Below, in pieces: positions 2,641 to 10,563 of a DNA stretch of 10,702 bases; the stretch's first letter is position 1; every line of letters starts with the position of its first letter. The notes beneath the pieces are model-generated. The model was not told the origin of the DNA. It saw only the letters and a list, made by a program, of their open reading frames with translations, and ran no database searches. This DNA comes from Promethearchaeota archaeon (GTDB lineage Archaea > Asgardarchaeota > Hermodarchaeia > Hermodarchaeales > Hermodarchaeaceae), in contig JBHLPH010000045.1 in NCBI GenBank assembly GCA_048939625.1, forward strand, positions 1-10,702, read 5' to 3'. The position numbers and the translations under genes were made by a program.

Positions 2641-3846
2641 GTGCCATCACTGAAAGAGTTCTTTCGCCGAGAAGGGGTGACTGCTTTTATCATCTTCCTT
2701 TCAGTAGCAGGCATTATTTGGGTCATTTTTCTCTCTTATTCATGGGGCGTCGAATTCGTTCCTGGTTTTGCCCTTGACGATGATACAATGCACAAGACTG
2801 TTATTTACTACATGATAAAGGGCGAAGATTTTTACTCCGCCTGGCGTCATGCTGCTGCAGTAACAGGCGACCTTGGAGATCTGCGTATCTATCGCACTCC
2901 CTTGGTGTTTTACCCGATTGTCTTTCTGACCGGGTGGGCAGGAACAGGATTTGTGTTTCCCCTCAGTGTTGTATGTGTTATTACCGCTGCAACTAACCTT
3001 ATCCTCACTTTTTGGGTAGTTAACAAAATCACTGGCTCCGGATGGGCTGCTTTAGCAGCTAGTTTTGTGCAATATGCATTTTTCTTTAATGTAATTCCAC
3101 TCTTTCAAATTGCCTTATTTGCTATGCCATTCGTCATTCTAGCCGTATACTGGGCTTGGACAGATCACCCGTGGCTGGCTGGAACAGCGATTGCTTTTGC
3201 TTTTCTCATTAAAGAGACCTTTGTATTTGCACTTCCTGCCATTCTAGTGTTTTTTCTGATCCGGCGTCAGTGGCGCTCAACAGGAATAGTCATGGTCTTG
3301 AATATCGTTGCATTGGCCCTATATTTCATTCACACACTAATTGCCCAGCCGATTCCAGACCCCACCATGATGCTTACTGCTAGTGGGCCTGAATTCTTAC
3401 TCAATTTCGGAAGTTTCATCTGGTTTGGATTTGGCGTGCTATCCTACAATGTTTTTGCACCCGCCACCTTCCCTGGTTATTATCCGACAAATCCTTTACC
3501 TGCAATTATCCCCATTCCTCTATTTTACATAATCTTAACATTCCAAGTAATCATTGTGTGGGGAACAATCAGCTGGTGGTTTCTTAAACTGATTCAAAAA
3601 CAACAAATGACATCGGTCCCACTGCTTTCCCTTGCCCTCGTTCTATGGCTTGTTCCAATCCTTTTTGCTGCGACCACACACATCACTGACTTTACTCGAT
3701 ACTGGATGGAATATGCGATTTGGAGATGGTTTGGTGCATCCTATGTTGGTTTCTCACTTCTCGTCGCTCTGAGTTGGACCGAGATGCGAGGAGCAGTTAA
3801 GCAGTTTCTACAGAGACCTCGTCTAATTGCTGTAGATGGGGTCTAG
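2641..3846 (+). CDS. Polytopic membrane protein, probable GT-C fold glycosyltransferase (GT87/PMT-like)
   Basis: About 10 hydrophobic segments. Acidic DDD in the loop after TM1, then YRTP...YP, and an AFLIKE Lys motif typical of GT-C enzymes. AGGTGA RBS at 2626-2631 before the GTG. Confidence 0.6.
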   Translation: MPSLKEFFRREGVTAFIIFLSVAGIIWVIFLSYSWGVEFVPGFALDDDTMHKTVIYYMIKGEDFYSAWRHAAAVTGDLGDLRIYRTPLVFYPIVFLTGWAGTGFVFPLSVVCVITAATNLILTFWVVNKITGSGWAALAASFVQYAFFFNVIPLFQIALFAMPFVILAVYWAWTDHPWLAGTAIAFAFLIKETFVFALPAILVFFLIRRQWRSTGIVMVLNIVALALYFIHTLIAQPIPDPTMMLTASGPEFLLNFGSFIWFGFGVLSYNVFAPATFPGYYPTNPLPAIIPIPLFYIILTFQVIIVWGTISWWFLKLIQKQQMTSVPLLSLALVLWLVPILFAATTHITDFTRYWMEYAIWRWFGASYVGFSLLVALSWTEMRGAVKQFLQRPRLIAVDGV

Positions 3847-3922
3847 CGTCTTTAAAAATAGAGGTTCGGGATGTGCCTTTGAATACACCAGCGCTATAAA
3901 AAGAAACCAAATCCCTTAGCTA

Positions 3923-4105
3923 TGTGTTACTAACGATTCTATACTAGGCATTACTCTTGGCGTTTGCCTCTTGGCGAAGGGCGCCGCTTAACCTCCGACG
4001 CCCTCGCTCCTTTTCCGATTAGTAACGCAGCAGATGCCTGGGAAGCATCAGGGGAGCACCGATGACCCCTCCGGTGTCGAGCCAGGAAGGTGAGGCCTCC
4101 ATCAT
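3923..4105. ncRNA. Candidate structured non-coding RNA of unknown family; strand and ends uncertain
   Basis: Lies between convergent genes. 3961-4100 is 88/140 GC versus about 33-37% in the flanks. 12-bp hairpin 3974-4007, hairpin 4033-4049, and stems 4050-4054/4066-4070, 4037-4041/4082-4086 and 3926-3933/4019-4026. No credible ORF. Confidence 0.5.
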
Positions 4106-4131
4106 TTCATCTTCATTAAACGAACGTTTCG

Positions 4132-5028
4132 TTATGGGATTTTTTTCGAGGTCTTTCGTATTTCCCATATTCGAACTTTGCCATCAGAAGAACCAACAGC
4201 TAGCCAGCGTCGAGTGGGTGAAACGGCAACCGAATAGACACCTTTGACAGGTAGCTCGAATTGCTTATCAAGGTCACCCGTCCGTAAATTCCACATACGG
4301 ACGCCATAATCGATAGCAGCAACCACTTTCTTACTATCCGTTGTAAATGTTAGATCCATAGCACGGGATTCAAGGTTGATGGAATGGATAGGTTCCCAAT
4401 TTTTTGTGTCCCAAATAATGAGGGTTTCTTCGTATCCGAGAGAACCAAGCAGTTGCCCGTCAGGAGAAAATTGAATAGCGTTCACAGCTGTTTCATGGCC
4501 TTTAATCTCTTTCACAAGGTCACCAGACGGAAAAGCCCACAAATAAATATCGTCTCCCAGTCCCCCCGCAGCCAGGTATTTGTCATCAGGAGAAAAATGA
4601 ACCGAACTGATATTTCGTCCTATATTGGTCAGAGTCAAAATTTCGTCACCACTTGCGATATCCCAAATTTTCACATGACCATCATAAGAGCCCGACGCGA
4701 TGAATTTATTTGATGAGGAAACCGCCACAGTCGATACTGTCTTGCGATGCCCACTTAGGGTGTACTCAACTTCACCAGAGGGATAGTGCCAGACTTTCAC
4801 TGTTGTATCCGTTGAACCTGTGACCACAAACTCGCTATTGTGAGTCATGCAGAGAGCATTCACGCTATTAGTATGACCAAAGAACGTGTGTTTCAAGGTC
4901 CAGTCCTGTAATGCCCAGGCATGAACGAGGTTATCCATCCCTGCTGAAAGTAATGCTGTCTTATCAGGAGAAAATAATACTCGTGTAACATAACGAGTGT
5001 GAGCATCGATGCTATTGAGGGATTCCAT
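4132..5028 (-). CDS. WD40-repeat protein, single 7-bladed beta-propeller (about 298 aa)
   Basis: Seven GH...WD-type repeats (e.g. GHRKTVSTVAVSSSNKFIASGSYDGHVKIWD, GHETAVNAIQFSPDG...IIWD). Start placed at ATG 5028 (GTG 5037 also possible) because the ORF-track start at 5151 overlaps the GGR gene. Confidence 0.9.
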   Translation of the reverse strand: MESLNSIDAHTRYVTRVLFSPDKTALLSAGMDNLVHAWALQDWTLKHTFFGHTNSVNALCMTHNSEFVVTGSTDTTVKVWHYPSGEVEYTLSGHRKTVSTVAVSSSNKFIASGSYDGHVKIWDIASGDEILTLTNIGRNISSVHFSPDDKYLAAGGLGDDIYLWAFPSGDLVKEIKGHETAVNAIQFSPDGQLLGSLGYEETLIIWDTKNWEPIHSINLESRAMDLTFTTDSKKVVAAIDYGVRMWNLRTGDLDKQFELPVKGVYSVAVSPTRRWLAVGSSDGKVRIWEIRKTSKKIP

Positions 5029-5099
5029 TTTTTCCACATATCCAAATAGATCAACATCATCTAATGTAACCCTGAAGTTTATACTTGTTCCAAATATAG

Positions 5100-6464
5100 T
5101 TAAGTTTGATAGCCCAAGTCGTGGTAGACACGAACTACTCGGTCCTTCCAAGGCTCGAAGGTGTCAGGAGCTTCAGGAAAATTCTGGTAAAGCGAAAGCA
5201 TCTCGCTCATTCCCTGAGACACTTTTTGGATACGACGGAGTAGTCCAAGTTTTCGCAACCCGCGTAAGAGTCTTCCAGCTTTATCAAAAGCAGATAACTG
5301 AAGCCCTATTCCAGCGTTAGCACGTAGAAGATCCTCGGTAGTTAGAATGCGATTATTTATCACATAATTAAATTCCTCGTTCCCAACCTCTTGGAGAAAG
5401 TGTCGCATCAAATCTAATGAAGCGATTTTTTGTCCATAGTGATTCCGATTATATTCAACATTAAATGACCAAAGCCCTGATGTTGACACATCATTCGCCT
5501 CAATTGCATGTTTAATAACGGGAGCCAAGACATGTCCTGCTTCAATAGCAGATCCAATTCCCCCACCATGGATTGGGTTGACGTGACAACCGCTATCACC
5601 AATAAACGCAATTCCATCAGCGACGTAGCTCCAAAGGGGTCTTCGGATTGGTGCCGTTCCACCTCCCCCATGAATGAGTTTAGCATCTTTGAAAATGGGA
5701 TTAGTGGAAAGGAATTTTGTATAGAGTGCTTTTGGACGATGTCCTTTACCCCCTTGAGTTCCTAAGCCGACGTTTGCGAGTTTTCCTCCACGCGGGAAAA
5801 TCCAAATATAGCCACCTGGACTGTAGCGATCGTTCATGATAATCCAACAACGATCGGCGGGTTCGAAGGGTTCTTGGAGCTCGAGAATTTCCCGGTAACA
5901 GACAGCTTGGTCTCGAAGTGCAATAGTTGATTCGATGAGGGGATTTTTTATTTTCCGCCGAAGAGTTGCAGACATTCCACTTGCATCAACAGTTACTTTT
6001 CCGTGTGCTTCTTTGGTGCGTTTAGTCTGGGTCTCTTTGTACTTGACTCCAATGACTGTATTATTGTCGAAGAGTGGTTCAAGTACATGGGCGTTATCTG
6101 TAATTATAGCTCCAGCCTTTTCGGCGTAGCCAAGGAGCCTTTGTCCAAAATAGATGCGGTCGATTGTCCAGCCATCGCAGGGTTCTCCTTCAACACGTTG
6201 GCTGATCGTTACGTAATTTTTCATGTTAGGAGGATAGATGTCGATACCATTGATCGTATTTCCGAGTTCTTTCCCGGTAGGATATGGAATGTCAGTGTTT
6301 TTGAGGTGATGGAGGGCGATGCCTTCACCGCAGACTTTATCGCCTACTCGTTCGCGTGGGAGACGTTCTAAAACCAAGACATCTAATCCAAGTTGGGAAG
6401 CTCTTTTTGCAAGATGAGCACCTGCAGGTCCAGCACCAACAATTATGAGGTCATGTTGAGACAC
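5100..6464 (-). CDS. Geranylgeranyl reductase family flavoprotein (digeranylgeranylglycerophospholipid reductase-like)
   Basis: GAGPAG FAD motif, KVCGEG, DASG, PGGYIWIFP (PxxYxWxFP), NVGLG, GDSG..VNPIHGGGI. GGAGG RBS at 6477-6473 and TTTTAAGT TATA-like element at 6512-6505. Confidence 0.9.
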   Translation of the reverse strand: MSQHDLIIVGAGPAGAHLAKRASQLGLDVLVLERLPRERVGDKVCGEGIALHHLKNTDIPYPTGKELGNTINGIDIYPPNMKNYVTISQRVEGEPCDGWTIDRIYFGQRLLGYAEKAGAIITDNAHVLEPLFDNNTVIGVKYKETQTKRTKEAHGKVTVDASGMSATLRRKIKNPLIESTIALRDQAVCYREILELQEPFEPADRCWIIMNDRYSPGGYIWIFPRGGKLANVGLGTQGGKGHRPKALYTKFLSTNPIFKDAKLIHGGGGTAPIRRPLWSYVADGIAFIGDSGCHVNPIHGGGIGSAIEAGHVLAPVIKHAIEANDVSTSGLWSFNVEYNRNHYGQKIASLDLMRHFLQEVGNEEFNYVINNRILTTEDLLRANAGIGLQLSAFDKAGRLLRGLRKLGLLRRIQKVSQGMSEMLSLYQNFPEAPDTFEPWKDRVVRVYHDLGYQT

Positions 6465-6563: not shown

Positions 6564-7448
6564 TTAAAGTATCTTAGCAAGCACAGGATCGACCTTTACT
6601 CGATGTTGAGCAAATCCTAACTTCTGTGGTGGAGTGCCGACAGCAAGGTTGAGGAGCTCAGGATAATAGAAAACAGGGAGAGGTGTTTTGTCCTCAGAAT
6701 CCCGTAGTGCAAGACGTTGCATTAAATCAAATTGAAGAGTGCATGCCGGACAAATCAGTACTAAAGCTTCCGCTCCAGCGCGTTTCATGTTTTCAAGCTT
6801 TATGCCAGTCATTTTTAGGGAAAGGTCACGATCTGCAGGACGAGTACCGTATCCACAGCAGTCCATTTCATCAGGAAAAGTCACCGTTTTAGCTCCTAAC
6901 GCACGGACGAGTTGATGAAGAATCGTCGGTCGTTGAGCATCATCAACGTTGAGTAAATTACTAGGTCGGAGAATGTGACAGCCGACATGGACAGCAGCCG
7001 TCAGGTGGGTGAGGGGATGAACAACGGATTCAGCAATTGTTCCCAAGCCGATATCTTCGAAGAGGAGTTGGATGAAATGCTTAACTTTGACCGGTCCTTT
7101 GTACTCATGACCAGTTTTAGCAAGAATGGTATTGATTTCGTCACGAAGCACCTTATTATCGTCAAGAGAGACTGCTGCACCTTTTAACATTTCAAAGCAG
7201 CCGTTACAGGGTGTGAGAATATTCAATCCTGCTTTCTCTGCTACCGCAAGGTTTCGGGCGGAAATAGCTAAGGCCGCGTGGTGATCAATGTGGGGTAAAG
7301 TAAGGGGATTTGGGCAACAACTAAATCCCCCAATATCCTGGGTTTTGATCTCAAAATACATTAATGTCGCCCGCATCGCCACTTCCATGTAAGGGAGACG
7401 ATTTGGAATCACACAACCCATATACAAAGCCCATTCATCTTCGCCCAT
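6564..7448 (-). CDS. hdrB: Heterodisulfide reductase subunit B
   Basis: Two complete CCG domains: GC..SCCP..PCNGC and GCH..DCCG..CPACTLQFD. ATG overlaps the hdrC stop (TGATG); TTG 7451 is an alternative start. Confidence 0.95.
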   Translation of the reverse strand: MGEDEWALYMGCVIPNRLPYMEVAMRATLMYFEIKTQDIGGFSCCPNPLTLPHIDHHAALAISARNLAVAEKAGLNILTPCNGCFEMLKGAAVSLDDNKVLRDEINTILAKTGHEYKGPVKVKHFIQLLFEDIGLGTIAESVVHPLTHLTAAVHVGCHILRPSNLLNVDDAQRPTILHQLVRALGAKTVTFPDEMDCCGYGTRPADRDLSLKMTGIKLENMKRAGAEALVLICPACTLQFDLMQRLALRDSEDKTPLPVFYYPELLNLAVGTPPQKLGFAQHRVKVDPVLAKIL

Positions 7449-8005
7449 CAAGCCTCCCCTCCTTCTTCAGTAGAGACAATTGCCTTGGTTTCTTGCAACT
7501 TTCGCTGTTTCACCTTTTCAAGGCGTTCAAGGAGCTCAGTAGCTTCAGCAATCTTTTGCAGGTTTTTCCCACCGCGATCATGCAAAGGAATGGGAGGTAA
7601 TCCCAGCTCCGCTCGTTTCTTATTAGCTTGATCGCTAGGGGGTAACGCCCATCCAGTCGCTATGATATTTTCGACTTCGGCAACAATATCATCAGGTGTG
7701 ATTCCAATTGAACTAGCTAAATTCTGAAGATCCCTAATCAATTCTGATACTGGGACTTTTTGGGGACAATGCTCTAAACATGCGTGGCAGCTGGTACATA
7801 ACCATAAGGCAGGCTCTGCGAGTAGTGCAGCAGCTTCGCCTTCTAAGGTTGCCTTGACCACCCGCCGTGGATGATAAATCTCGGAACCAGTTAATCGCGA
7901 AACAGGACACGCCGCAACACATGTGCCACAAGCAAAACAACTTTTAGTATCAACCCGTTTCGCCAGTTTCGCTGAAATTTCTTCGAGTTGTTCATCCAGG
8001 TTCAT
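7448..8005 (-). CDS. hdrC: Heterodisulfide reductase subunit C (2x[4Fe-4S])
   Basis: CFACGTCVAACP and LWLCTSCHACLEHCP, plus RAELGLP. ATGA overlap with the hdrA stop. Confidence 0.93.
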   Translation of the reverse strand: MNLDEQLEEISAKLAKRVDTKSCFACGTCVAACPVSRLTGSEIYHPRRVVKATLEGEAAALLAEPALWLCTSCHACLEHCPQKVPVSELIRDLQNLASSIGITPDDIVAEVENIIATGWALPPSDQANKKRAELGLPPIPLHDRGGKNLQKIAEATELLERLEKVKQRKLQETKAIVSTEEGGEA

Positions 8006-10563
8006 TTCACCTTCACCTTTGCCGTCTTTGTCTTCGCTGCTTTCTGTGCCTTTGAATTAGGCTTTGGTTTTGGCTTTCCCTTCTTCATCAGTTTCGCGAG
8101 TCGCTCTTCAATCACAGGACGTAACCGAGTATTCTCTTCAACAATATAGTCATGTCCCATCTCCTTCAACTGCTCAGCCATTTCAGTTGTAACCGCTGCC
8201 CATTTATCACCTTCAGCAGCGGACACCCATTCTAAACGAAATCGCCGTGGATCCATACCAATTCGCTCAAGATACGCGGACATACGCTTCGCCCGCTTCT
8301 CCGCCCACACGTTCCCACTGATATAATGACAGTCGCTCCCTGTTTCCGTTAGACGACACCCTGACATCAACACCATTCCGGCCCCTAACCGAAAAGCTTC
8401 CAAGATGAACTGATCAGACATTCGTCCAGAACACATCACTCGAATGCCCCGAACATTGCTGGGATAATCATACCGGCTGATTCCAGCCAAATCGGCGCCT
8501 GCATAGCTACACCAATTACATAACATTGCGAAAATCTTGTCTTCCGGATTCTCCCGGAGAAGAGCACGAATCTGGTCCATGATCTGGGCATCTGTAAAGT
8601 GCATCTGCTCAATAGCACCCGCTGGACACTCAGCAACGCATGTGCCACAACCGTGACATTTGGCGGGAGTAACAACTGCAGCTTTACCAGGTTCTGCTGA
8701 GATGGCGCCATATGCACACCGGGAAACGCAGATACCACATTTTCCAGTGGCACTACGGCAGAGCTCAGGGTTGACGACCGCGACGATTGGTTCGATTTCC
8801 CATTCATTTTGGGTGATAATGCGTAAGGCTCGTGATGCGGCCGCACTGCCTTGGGCAACGCTTGCAGGGATGTCCTTGGGTCCTTGGGCGGAGCCACAAA
8901 AGAATACGCCTTCTGTGGCGGCGTCCACAGGTTTGAGTTTGGGATGAGCTTCCATGTAAAAGCCTGAAGGGCCGAGGGGTACATTGAGGACGCGAGCAAG
9001 TTCTTCGGTGCCTTTGCTGGGAATAGCAGCTGTACTTAGGATGACCATGTCGTATTCGCGTTTAGTGAATTTGCCAGAAGCCATGTCTTCGGCTTGGACG
9101 AAGAGGTTACGGGTTTGAGGATCTTCGGTTATGCTAGCGGGGCGACCTTGTTGGAAACGGATGCCTGCGCGTCGGGCACGTTGGTAGAATTCTTCATAGT
9201 CTTTGAAGTTGGTTCGGATATCCATGTAATAAATTGTGATTTCAGCATCGGGATATTTTTCATGGATAAGAAGCGCGTTTTTGATTGTGTACATACAACA
9301 GAAGCCGGAGCAGTAAATATTGCTGCGTTCGTCACGGCTGCCAACGCATTGGATGAAGGCGAATCTGTGGGGTTTGGTTTGATCGGAGGGACGAATGACT
9401 TTTCCTTCGGTGGGACCCGCAGCGTTGATGAGGCGTTCCAATTCCATAGCAGTAATCACGTTGGGGTAGACCCCATAACCGTATTCTGTGATTGGTGTGG
9501 GATCATAAGGCTCATAGCCGGTTGCAACAATGATAGCGCCGATGTCGAATTCATGGATTTTTTCAGCATCATCAGGTATAATGGCTTCTTGACCTGCTTT
9601 ATTACACGCCTCGTAACACATCATACATTCTTTGGGAGTAAGACCTAAACAGTGGTCAGGATCAATCAGATATGCAGCGGGAACTGCTTGAGGATATGGT
9701 ATATAGATGGCGTGTCGCCAGCCAAGATTAGCATCAAAATTATTTGGAACTAGGACAGGACATACTTTCTGACAATCCCCACAACTGTTGCACTTGTCGA
9801 TGTCGACATAGCGTGGTCGTTGAGTAACTTGCACTTTAAAATTGCCTACAAACCCTTCAACCTTTGTAACTTCAGCATTCGTGATTAGCTCGATGTTCGG
9901 ATGTCGAGCGACTTCGGCCATCTTTGGCCCGAGGATACAGATGGAACAATCAAGTGTTGGAAAGGTTTTGTCTAAAAGTGCCATAATGCCGCCAACTGTT
10001 GGGGAGCGTTCAACGAGATAGACTTTGTAACCGGCATCAGCGATATCGAGAGCAGCATGGATGCCTGAGACACCACCCCCAATAACCAGCGCAGTATGAG
10101 TGACTGGAACTTTGAGGACTTCTAGTGGTTGGAGGTGGTGAGCTTTTGCAACAGCGCTAGCAATAAGATCGGCAGCTTTTTCCTGACATCCTTCAGGGTC
10201 ACTAGCGTGACACCATGTACCCTGGTCGCGAATATTCGCCATTTCAAAAAAGAACTGGTTGAGACCTGCATCTTCAGTACACCGGCGAAAGGTTGGTTCA
10301 TGCATTCGTGGCGTGCAAGCTGCAACAACCACGCGATCGAGTTTTTCTTCTTTGACTATCCGTTTGATTTCTTCTTGCCCAGGATCTGCGCAGGTGAATT
10401 TATTGACTTTTGATGCTACAACCCCGTCTAATTTTTCTGCGCCTTTCGCTAATGAAAGGCAGTCGACGACTCCTGCAATATTACGTCCACATTCACATAC
10501 AAAAACGCCGATTCGTGGTTTCTTTTCTTTGGGCTGCTTGGCTTTTGCGATGGCGGCCACCAC
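8002..10563 (-). CDS. hdrA: Heterodisulfide reductase subunit A fused to a C-terminal MvhD (hydrogenase delta) domain
   Basis: IGVFVCECGRNI, AACTPRMHE, IGGGVSG, DKTFPTLDCSIC, ELER, IQCVGSRD, YCSGFCCMYTIK, inserted and C-terminal ferredoxin domains, then MvhD motifs CNWCSYAGAD, RVMCSGR, GC..DCHY, WVSAAEG. Confidence 0.96.
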   Translation of the reverse strand: MVAAIAKAKQPKEKKPRIGVFVCECGRNIAGVVDCLSLAKGAEKLDGVVASKVNKFTCADPGQEEIKRIVKEEKLDRVVVAACTPRMHEPTFRRCTEDAGLNQFFFEMANIRDQGTWCHASDPEGCQEKAADLIASAVAKAHHLQPLEVLKVPVTHTALVIGGGVSGIHAALDIADAGYKVYLVERSPTVGGIMALLDKTFPTLDCSICILGPKMAEVARHPNIELITNAEVTKVEGFVGNFKVQVTQRPRYVDIDKCNSCGDCQKVCPVLVPNNFDANLGWRHAIYIPYPQAVPAAYLIDPDHCLGLTPKECMMCYEACNKAGQEAIIPDDAEKIHEFDIGAIIVATGYEPYDPTPITEYGYGVYPNVITAMELERLINAAGPTEGKVIRPSDQTKPHRFAFIQCVGSRDERSNIYCSGFCCMYTIKNALLIHEKYPDAEITIYYMDIRTNFKDYEEFYQRARRAGIRFQQGRPASITEDPQTRNLFVQAEDMASGKFTKREYDMVILSTAAIPSKGTEELARVLNVPLGPSGFYMEAHPKLKPVDAATEGVFFCGSAQGPKDIPASVAQGSAAASRALRIITQNEWEIEPIVAVVNPELCRSATGKCGICVSRCAYGAISAEPGKAAVVTPAKCHGCGTCVAECPAGAIEQMHFTDAQIMDQIRALLRENPEDKIFAMLCNWCSYAGADLAGISRYDYPSNVRGIRVMCSGRMSDQFILEAFRLGAGMVLMSGCRLTETGSDCHYISGNVWAEKRAKRMSAYLERIGMDPRRFRLEWVSAAEGDKWAAVTTEMAEQLKEMGHDYIVEENTRLRPVIEERLAKLMKKGKPKPKPNSKAQKAAKTKTAKVKVK

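Follow-up and report, generated by a model that had tools for sequence, protein, structure and literature searches.

What is the GC-rich island that lies between two convergent genes on a contig of a Promethearchaeota archaeon of the class Hermodarchaeia, and from which strand would it be read? The window that we analysed is the whole of this 10.7-kb contig (C72; 10,702 nucleotides, nt), which is part of a 2.3-Mb metagenome-assembled genome (MAG) that is 87.6% complete. Within it, a GT87-like glycosyltransferase gene on the plus strand (2641–3846) and a seven-blade WD40 gene on the minus strand (4132–5151) are separated by a 285-bp gap that holds the element. GC content is 62.9% over 3961–4100 and drops to 37% in 4101–4200; 0.07% of the genome's 140-nt windows reach 63% GC (genome mean 44.6%, sd 4.8%). 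A preliminary description of this DNA had reported an island of 63% GC between convergent genes with an abrupt edge at 4100, which these figures bear out, and had proposed a candidate novel non-coding RNA at 3923–4105, read from the minus strand. By comparing the locus among relatives, we find a conserved, structured element without an Rfam family, as that description had supposed, and the limits that we predict for it fit those coordinates well; however, we place it on the opposite strand. In our reading, 3926–4107 on the plus strand is probably an independently transcribed, structured small RNA of about 180 nt, which would serve as the RNA of an L7Ae-bound ribonucleoprotein (RNP). We refer to it as K-turn RNA.

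We searched a genome collection in which the class, the order and the family of Hermodarchaeia comprise the identical 19 species genomes, in two genera. Using BLAST and two covariance models, we found the element in 11 of 14 genus-1 and two of four genus-2 genomes, plus a few metagenome contigs. It is single copy per genome and syntenic in all 14 Hermodarchaeia genomes in which the locus is assembled. Of the five genomes without a match, three have a GT87-like gene that is cut off at the end of a contig (G008, G016, G017), and in two this gene was not found (G002, G010); because the locus is cut or unassembled in all five, the RNA is present wherever it can be assessed. The covariance-model search of 132 other Asgard genomes gave chance-level matches only (E 0.015–0.05), and judging by these searches the RNA is specific to the Asgard class Hermodarchaeia. 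On contig C37 of genome G001 (L036:1472–1542), words of the element (AGCAGCA plus CUGGGAAGC / GUGC-CUGGGAA-GCAC) recur within a protein-coding region. We rejected the weak model match on this contig (E about 0.01–0.03) as chance: it lies inside the coding region, with the peptide ...EAASAWEAQG..., which looks aminoacyl-tRNA synthetase-like by eye.

The gene order in genus 1 is helix-turn-helix (HTH) gene, GT87 (+), element, WD40 (−) and a geranylgeranyl-reductase-like gene (GGR, −). In genus 2, the WD40 gene is missing from the locus and the element lies between GT87 and GGR. The WD40 orthologues of genus 1 share 63–83% identity. No orthologue was found in the four genus-2 genomes, where the best matches are stretches 27–34% identical, mostly within much larger multi-WD40 proteins. 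At the nucleotide level, the element is 77–94% identical to the window, compared to 69–83% for the flanking GT87 coding DNA and 70–81% for the WD40 gene, and it has the higher identity in 11 of 11 comparisons.

To describe conservation along the locus, we used the mean majority fraction by segment. The left flank (3840–3869) has a fraction of 0.45, after which an upstream element (3870–3892) reaches 0.84 and a TATA segment (3893–3903) 0.92. A spacer (3904–3925) falls to 0.65. The body of the RNA follows with 0.81 for the domain that holds the first three helices, P1–P3 (3926–4026), 0.93 for a linker and P4 (4027–4049), 0.88 and 0.79 for the two strands of the kink-turn core (4053–4066 and 4091–4100), and 0.64 for a variable apical hairpin (4067–4090) in which pairing is kept. 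Downstream (4108–4131) the fraction is 0.47. Conservation thus rises at 3926 and drops after 4107, and we take these positions as the ends of a predicted RNA body of about 182 nt (5′ GUUAC ... CUCC-AUCAUUU 3′, plus strand); the covariance-model match spans 3926–4111.

The preliminary description had called for homologues and a test of covariation in relatives. We annotated a six-helix structure by hand, built a covariance model (R2) from it and realigned the sequences. Across its 42 pairs, 91.8% of cells hold a standard pair, compared to 37–56% when the 3′ partners are slid by 1–3 columns, and 20 pairs are changed on both sides, compared to 3–10 in the slid controls. Not one of five measures was matched by any of 500 column shuffles. 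The six-helix fold is supported by covariation. Folding of the single sequence carries no such signal: against dinucleotide shuffles, neither strand is significant (z −0.61 on minus, −0.35 on plus), so the hairpins that had first drawn attention to the locus do not by themselves go beyond chance.

The 5′ domain is closed by P1, which pairs 3926–3935 with 4016–4026 (A4018 bulged). Six of the eight pairs of its main run are changed on both sides, for example UA/CG and AU/GC, and in the sister genus P1 contains U-G and G-U pairs. Inside it stand two hairpins and two conserved junction strands. P2 (AGGCA/UGCCU with a 14-nt loop; 3946–3969, pairing 3946–3950 with 3965–3969) is 88.6% paired with little variation, and it is dispensable, because 3946–3969 is deleted in the sister genus. 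P3 (GAGGGCG.CG / CG.CGCCCUC; 3977–4005, pairing 3977–3986 with 3996–4005) is 95.1% paired with G-U and U-G variants; the source genome has an A3977-C4005 mismatch where the other sequences have G-C. The first junction strand, pyrimidine-rich, covers 3970–3976 (columns C42, C43, T44, T46, T47 and G48 invariant), and CCUCUUGG spans 3967–3974. The second, GCUCCUUUUC, covers 4006–4015 with T83, C84 and C85 invariant and T86, T88 and T89 nearly so. A conserved single-stranded linker, GCAGCA (4027–4032), leads from this domain to P4 (GAUGC-CUGGGAA-GCAUC; 4033–4049, pairing 4033–4037 with 4045–4049), which is 97.6% paired with three pairs changed on both sides. The P4 loop, CUGGGAA, fits a T-loop-like pattern, UGNRA, by its sequence. 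The 3′ hairpin is made of P5 (5′ strand GGAG..CC; 4053–4060 with 4094–4100; four of six pairs changed on both sides) and P6 (4067–4074 with 4082–4090; five of seven pairs changed on both sides, sequence variable). Finally, a 3′ tail, AUCAUUU (4101–4107), is T-rich in all relatives, with up to T6, and is likely to be an archaeal oligo-T termination site. Two of the three hairpins named in the preliminary description are mirror images of the covariation-supported P3 and P4. The third (GCGUUACU/AGUAAUGC, 3946–3953 with 4023–4030) is not a conserved pairing; the conserved helix in its place is P1, which covaries and is kept in the sister genus despite the 3946–3969 deletion.

P5 and P6 flank an internal loop with the signature of a kink-turn. 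The pattern CC-GAU-GA ... (U/C/A)-GA-GG occurs in 16 of 16 sequences, on the plus strand only, and the GAUGA columns are invariant. On the bulged strand (4061–4066), a 3-nt bulge, GAU (4061–4063), is followed by G4064, A4065 and C4066 at position 3b. The non-bulged strand (U-GA) and the 3′ strand of the canonical (C) helix (GG.CUCC) together occupy 4091–4100, with Y/A-GA in 16 of 16 sequences. The predicted sheared pairs are G4064-A4093 and A4065-G4092, and 3b-3n would be the non-Watson-Crick pair C4066-U4091; across sequences this position is C-U, U-U, C-C, C-A or A-U. The Watson-Crick C helix, P5, ends in C-G, and its terminal CC/GG varies to UC/GA, CU/GG or UU/GA. The C helix lies against the bulge, the non-canonical (NC) helix, P6, follows the G-A pairs, and both helices covary. 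Going by this consensus, the 3′ hairpin holds a canonical kink-turn. The source genome encodes two L7Ae-family proteins (one at C19:34336–34608), and the kink-turn most likely recruits a protein of this family.

The region upstream of the RNA body resembles a promoter. In archaeal promoters of the BRE/TATA type (BRE, B recognition element), an A/T-rich 8-mer lies about 24–27 nt ahead of the site where the transcript begins, and the spacer between the two is not conserved. At the K-turn RNA locus, the box TATAAAAA (3895–3902, plus strand), followed by G3903, is almost invariant across the aligned sequences, with one T/A variant, and a spacer of 21–24 nt and variable sequence separates it from the conserved 5′ GUUAC at 3926, the predicted start site. 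The U-rich tract at about 3906–3898, read earlier as a possible terminator for a minus-strand transcript, is in our view this TATA box. The same geometry recurs at other RNA genes of the lineage: the TATA 8-mer ends 24 nt ahead of the RNA in a relative's signal recognition particle (SRP) RNA gene and about 24–25 nt ahead of it in omega-RNA-like genes (described below), the latter showing both spellings, TTTTTATA and CTATAAAAG, on the sense strand. The match in spacing to these genes supports the plus strand. Ahead of the box lies the upstream element GATGTGCCTTTnnnTACACMAGC (3870–3892, plus strand), an imperfect palindrome (TGTG-N10-CACA) that is unique in the genome and is possibly a transcription-factor site controlling the RNA gene. 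A scan for bacterial promoters and terminators found nothing, although a scan of this type is irrelevant to an archaeon.

The helices themselves also point to the plus strand. Across relatives, in an alignment fitted to the plus-strand model, the plus strand has 36 G-U versus 20 A-C cells. The consensus structure has the lower energy on plus in 11 of 14 sequences, with sums of −442 versus −370 kcal/mol. In genus 2, two pairs of P1 (GUUAUUAGCGG/CCGUUAGUAAC) and two of P3 (GAGGGUGUC/GAUGCCCUC) are wobbles, which on minus would turn into A-C mismatches. Together with the promoter geometry, the T-rich 3′ tail and the plus-only kink-turn, these results make it very probable that the RNA is encoded on the plus strand, contrary to the preliminary choice. 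The G-U wobbles that had seemed to favour minus do so in the source genome only, where A3977 replaces the G of the other sequences.

How might such an RNA work? We suggest that it would be transcribed from its own archaeal promoter, with the TATA box at 3895–3902 and the upstream element ahead of it, and would end at the T-rich tract. It would fold into a 5′ domain closed by P1 and holding P2, P3 and the two pyrimidine-rich junction strands, followed by the GCAGCA linker, the small P4 hairpin with its CUGGGAA loop and the 3′ kink-turn hairpin. The kink-turn would recruit an L7Ae-family protein, and the RNA would be the RNA subunit or scaffold of a small RNP, in which the conserved unpaired tracts (CCUCUUGG, CUCCUUUU, GCAGCA and CUGGGAA) could be contact surfaces for one or more further proteins or an RNA partner. 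Trans-acting small RNAs (sRNAs) are a further point of comparison. Archaea have intergenic trans-acting sRNAs, such as the Methanosarcina sRNAs that mask ribosome-binding sites, and K-turn RNA is similar to them in being a stand-alone intergenic gene with its own putative promoter and with C/U-rich conserved single strands able to pair with purine-rich, Shine-Dalgarno-like sequences. It stands apart from them in being much more heavily structured, with a kink-turn in addition to six covarying helices, and we identified no target. An RNA so highly structured, with conserved nucleotides in its junctions, fits an RNP subunit or scaffold better than a simple antisense sRNA.

Taken furthest, this proposal would make the RNA the core of a previously unknown kink-turn RNP that is specific to Asgard archaea and belongs to the guides of neither the C/D nor the H/ACA type. 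In its boldest form, the L7Ae-bound RNA would also work with the adjacent seven-blade WD40 protein in genus 1, as a prokaryotic counterpart of the eukaryotic arrangement of Snu13 plus a WD40 protein on the U3 B/C motif. We regard this as a long shot. The likeness to the U3 B/C kink-turn with the WD40 protein Rrp9 (and to the U4 5′ stem-loop with Snu13) lies in a 3′-proximal kink-turn hairpin within a longer RNA, the seven-blade WD40 neighbour of genus 1 and the Asgard host. The differences are that no Rfam U3 or U4 match was found, complementarity to pre-rRNA is not above chance, and the sister genus keeps the RNA without a WD40 neighbour or an orthologue that we could find, which weakens the case for a WD40 partner.

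Several observations weigh against our interpretation. In the source genome alone, the minus strand folds marginally better than the plus strand (−43.0 versus −41.7 kcal/mol). The 36:20 ratio of G-U to A-C cells overstates independence, because the cells were counted in an alignment that had been fitted to the plus-strand model, and among related sequences. The TATA box is close to a palindrome, and on minus it reads as a U-run able to terminate a minus-strand transcript. No target or partner was identified: the conserved strands (CCUCUUGG, CUCCUUUUCC, GCAGCAG and CUGGGAA) pair with the small-subunit (SSU) and large-subunit (LSU) rRNA of relatives no better than shuffles do. Finally, two genomes, G004 (L033:1300–1580) and G009 (L031:1290–1530), carry a 230–250-bp insert between P4 and the kink-turn hairpin, with the hairpin intact downstream. 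This means that the intact RNA is dispensable in these two genomes, or that its halves act separately, or that the insertions are recent.

Of the alternatives, the one that survives best, though we consider it unlikely, is an RNA from the minus strand, either stand-alone or processed from the 3′ untranslated region (UTR) of the WD40 mRNA (in the sister genus, of the GGR mRNA), with a C/D-box-like module at its 5′ end (AUGAUGG at 4104–4098, CUGA at 4042–4039) and termination at the U-run at 3906–3898. The marginally better fold of the source genome on minus, where A3977 gives a G-U pair, speaks for it, as do a T5 run that is conserved in every genome downstream of the structure on minus and the position of the element 3′ of a minus-strand gene in both genera. 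Yet the G-U to A-C balance and the energies across sequences favour plus, and the C-box-like word is unconserved: CCATCAT, as it reads on plus, changes to CCAACAC, CCACCAT, CGACCAT, CCTTCAT or CTCTTCA, which destroys the G-A steps of UGAUGA. A minus-strand C/D-type RNA would also lack a C′/D′ pair and the 12-nt spacing of guides. On plus, the invariant GAUGA/GA internal loop is a canonical kink-turn, but no meaning is known for it on minus; upstream on minus, no promoter is conserved (4108–4131, fraction 0.47); and the conserved block at 3870–3892, which lies beyond the supposed terminator, is left unexplained. As for processing from the WD40 3′ UTR, which the preliminary description had entertained, the RNA is kept in the sister genus, where we found neither a WD40 neighbour nor an orthologue.

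Slightly less likely still is a plus-strand origin in the 3′ UTR of the GT87-like mRNA, where the element, instead of being a gene in its own right, would be a structured cis element of this UTR or an sRNA processed out of it. In both genera, the RNA does without exception follow the GT87-like gene directly, on the same strand. However, an almost invariant TATA box and a variable spacer of 21–24 nt stand between the gene and the RNA, and neither would be needed by a UTR element. The gap to the stop codon is anywhere between about 25 and about 140 nt, and the stretch from the stop codon to 3870 is not conserved (0.45). We agree with the preliminary description that the element is not part of a 5′ UTR.

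We think it highly improbable that the element is a strongly divergent member of one of the known universal or guide RNA types (RNase P, SRP, 5S, H/ACA or U3-like) or a terminal or remnant piece of a mobile element. The 5′ domain, a hairpin with a large internal loop, and the ACA that follows P1 in some sequences could suggest a guide RNA, and the WD40 neighbour in genus 1 recalls U3 and Rrp9. Against this, the source genome has an RNase P RNA at C62:8144–8521 and a 5S rRNA at C63:20–138, and SRP RNA lies on other contigs in 10 of 12 genus members. Rfam searches gave no match at the locus when the whole window was scanned at gathering scores and none over 3800–4200 at E ≤ 10, in agreement with the earlier impression that no known family fits, for which an Rfam check had been proposed; ARAGORN found no tRNA and no tmRNA in the whole window. 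A U3-like RNP with a WD40 partner was rejected on the missing Rfam match, on SSU complementarity no higher than chance and on the absence of the WD40 gene from the genus-2 locus, where no orthologue was found. Being single copy and syntenic, the element is neither a repeat nor the end of a mobile element.

Two guide RNA classes deserve a closer comparison. Archaeal box C/D sRNAs have C (RUGAUGA) and D (CUGA) boxes, internal D′/C′ boxes, guides of 10–12 nt and a length of about 50–70 nt. K-turn RNA is similar to their terminal kink-turn, that of L7Ae-Nop5-fibrillarin RNPs, in that the C helix is outside, the 5′ strand reads ...AUGA and the 3′ strand ...YGA, and L7Ae-family genes are present in the source genome. 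It differs in that its NC helix continues into a closed hairpin, in its large 5′ domain and in its length, about 180 versus 50–70 nt. We rejected a box C/D assignment on these grounds: a single kink-turn, no C′/D′, no guides, the length of about 180 nt, an unconserved 'C box' on minus and no Rfam match.

Archaeal H/ACA RNAs carry an ACA/ANA box 14–16 nt 3′ of the pseudouridylation pocket and a kink-turn or K-loop in the upper stem of the hairpin that bears this pocket, and the pocket strands have bipartite complementarity to rRNA or tRNA. Similar to them, K-turn RNA combines a hairpin whose large internal loop consists of conserved single strands with a kink-turn, in an archaeon with L7Ae. We nevertheless rejected this class: only about half of the sequences have an ACA, which is some 20 nt away from the P3 base rather than 14–16, P3 is without a G-A motif, and the kink-turn sits in a separate 3′ hairpin with its C helix proximal, in the opposite orientation. 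Duplex scans for pocket complementarity against the SSU and partial LSU rRNA of relatives (the rRNA of the source genome is unassembled) were no better than shuffles, and a genome-wide search for an H/ACA-type bipartite target gave chance matches only.

Least credible of all is a selenocysteine insertion sequence (SECIS) element, eukaryote-like or Lokiarchaeal-type, serving a neighbouring gene: the AUGA ... GA kink-turn core is that of eukaryotic and Lokiarchaeal SECIS elements, and a fusion of HdrA and MvhD, which are classic archaeal selenoproteins, is encoded at 8002–10563, but SepSecS and other selenocysteine machinery were not found in the 87.6% complete genome, the neighbouring open reading frames (ORFs) are all uninterrupted with no in-frame stop (UGA or other), the kink-turn, on plus, is 4 kb from the Hdr/Mvh genes, which are on minus, a conserved apical AAR motif is absent, and a promoter of its own and three further conserved helices would be superfluous for a SECIS.

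Of the archaeal RNA classes known to bind L7Ae (C/D, H/ACA, RNase P, SRP), K-turn RNA matches none. With its class-wide conservation, its six covarying helices and its kink-turn, this makes it a candidate for a new RNA family and for a new RNP; the family is new, but the kink-turn from which it is partly built is familiar. No known prokaryotes are closer to eukaryotes than the Asgard archaea. Since almost none of these have been cultured, their non-coding RNAs have hardly been explored. The kink-turn hairpin is a concrete object for L7Ae binding assays, and the locus can be traced in sediment metatranscriptomes. Should no special function emerge, the RNA would still be useful as a lineage marker. 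The case also shows that reading a single sequence can lead to the wrong strand.

The inserts in G004 and G009 led to a second group of RNA-like sequences. Their core is a multi-copy repeat of about 140 nt (GTCGCCGC..GGCGGAGAC...CGATGATGCAGGAACCGAACAC...GGGTAAGTTTCGGACAACGG), with three copies in the source genome (C36:435–568, C43:300–404 and C19:45914–46004) and 6–11 in the relatives searched. Because the C43 copy overlaps the 3′ end of a 458-aa TnpB gene (OrfB_IS605, Cas12f1-like TNB domains), we identify the repeat as a TnpB omega-RNA scaffold. Many other copies are ORF-less, have their own TATA about 25 nt upstream and a variable 3′ 'guide', and look like orphan omega-RNA genes. An Rfam search of the two insert-bearing loci gave only a chance SNORD15 match (E 0.62).

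Some features of the genome and the window lie outside this argument. In the whole 2.3-Mb MAG, ARAGORN found 13 tRNA genes only, and many tRNAs of this MAG may be intron-containing or unassembled; its SSU, LSU and SRP RNAs are unassembled. In relatives, the SSU rRNA genes (L069, G005:C71:619–4212; G015:C142:2337–5006) span 2.7–3.6 kb for a 1478-position model or come in separated pieces, which suggests that Hermodarchaeia 16S rRNA genes have large insertions or introns. Directly 3′ of the GT87 stop codon, a second A/T-rich word, CTTTAAAAATAG (3850–3861), is unconserved among relatives and possibly acts as the GT87-like gene's terminator. On the other side of the element, GGR occupies 5100–6464 on the minus strand, and there is a 52-nt overlap between its longest ORF and the start of the longest WD40 ORF. 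A string of minus-strand genes then fills 6564–10563: it encodes an HdrA-like flavoprotein fused to MvhD/FlpD (853 aa; the HdrA-MvhD fusion noted above), a 4Fe-4S dicluster protein (185 aa) and a CCG-domain HdrB/C-like protein (295 aa).

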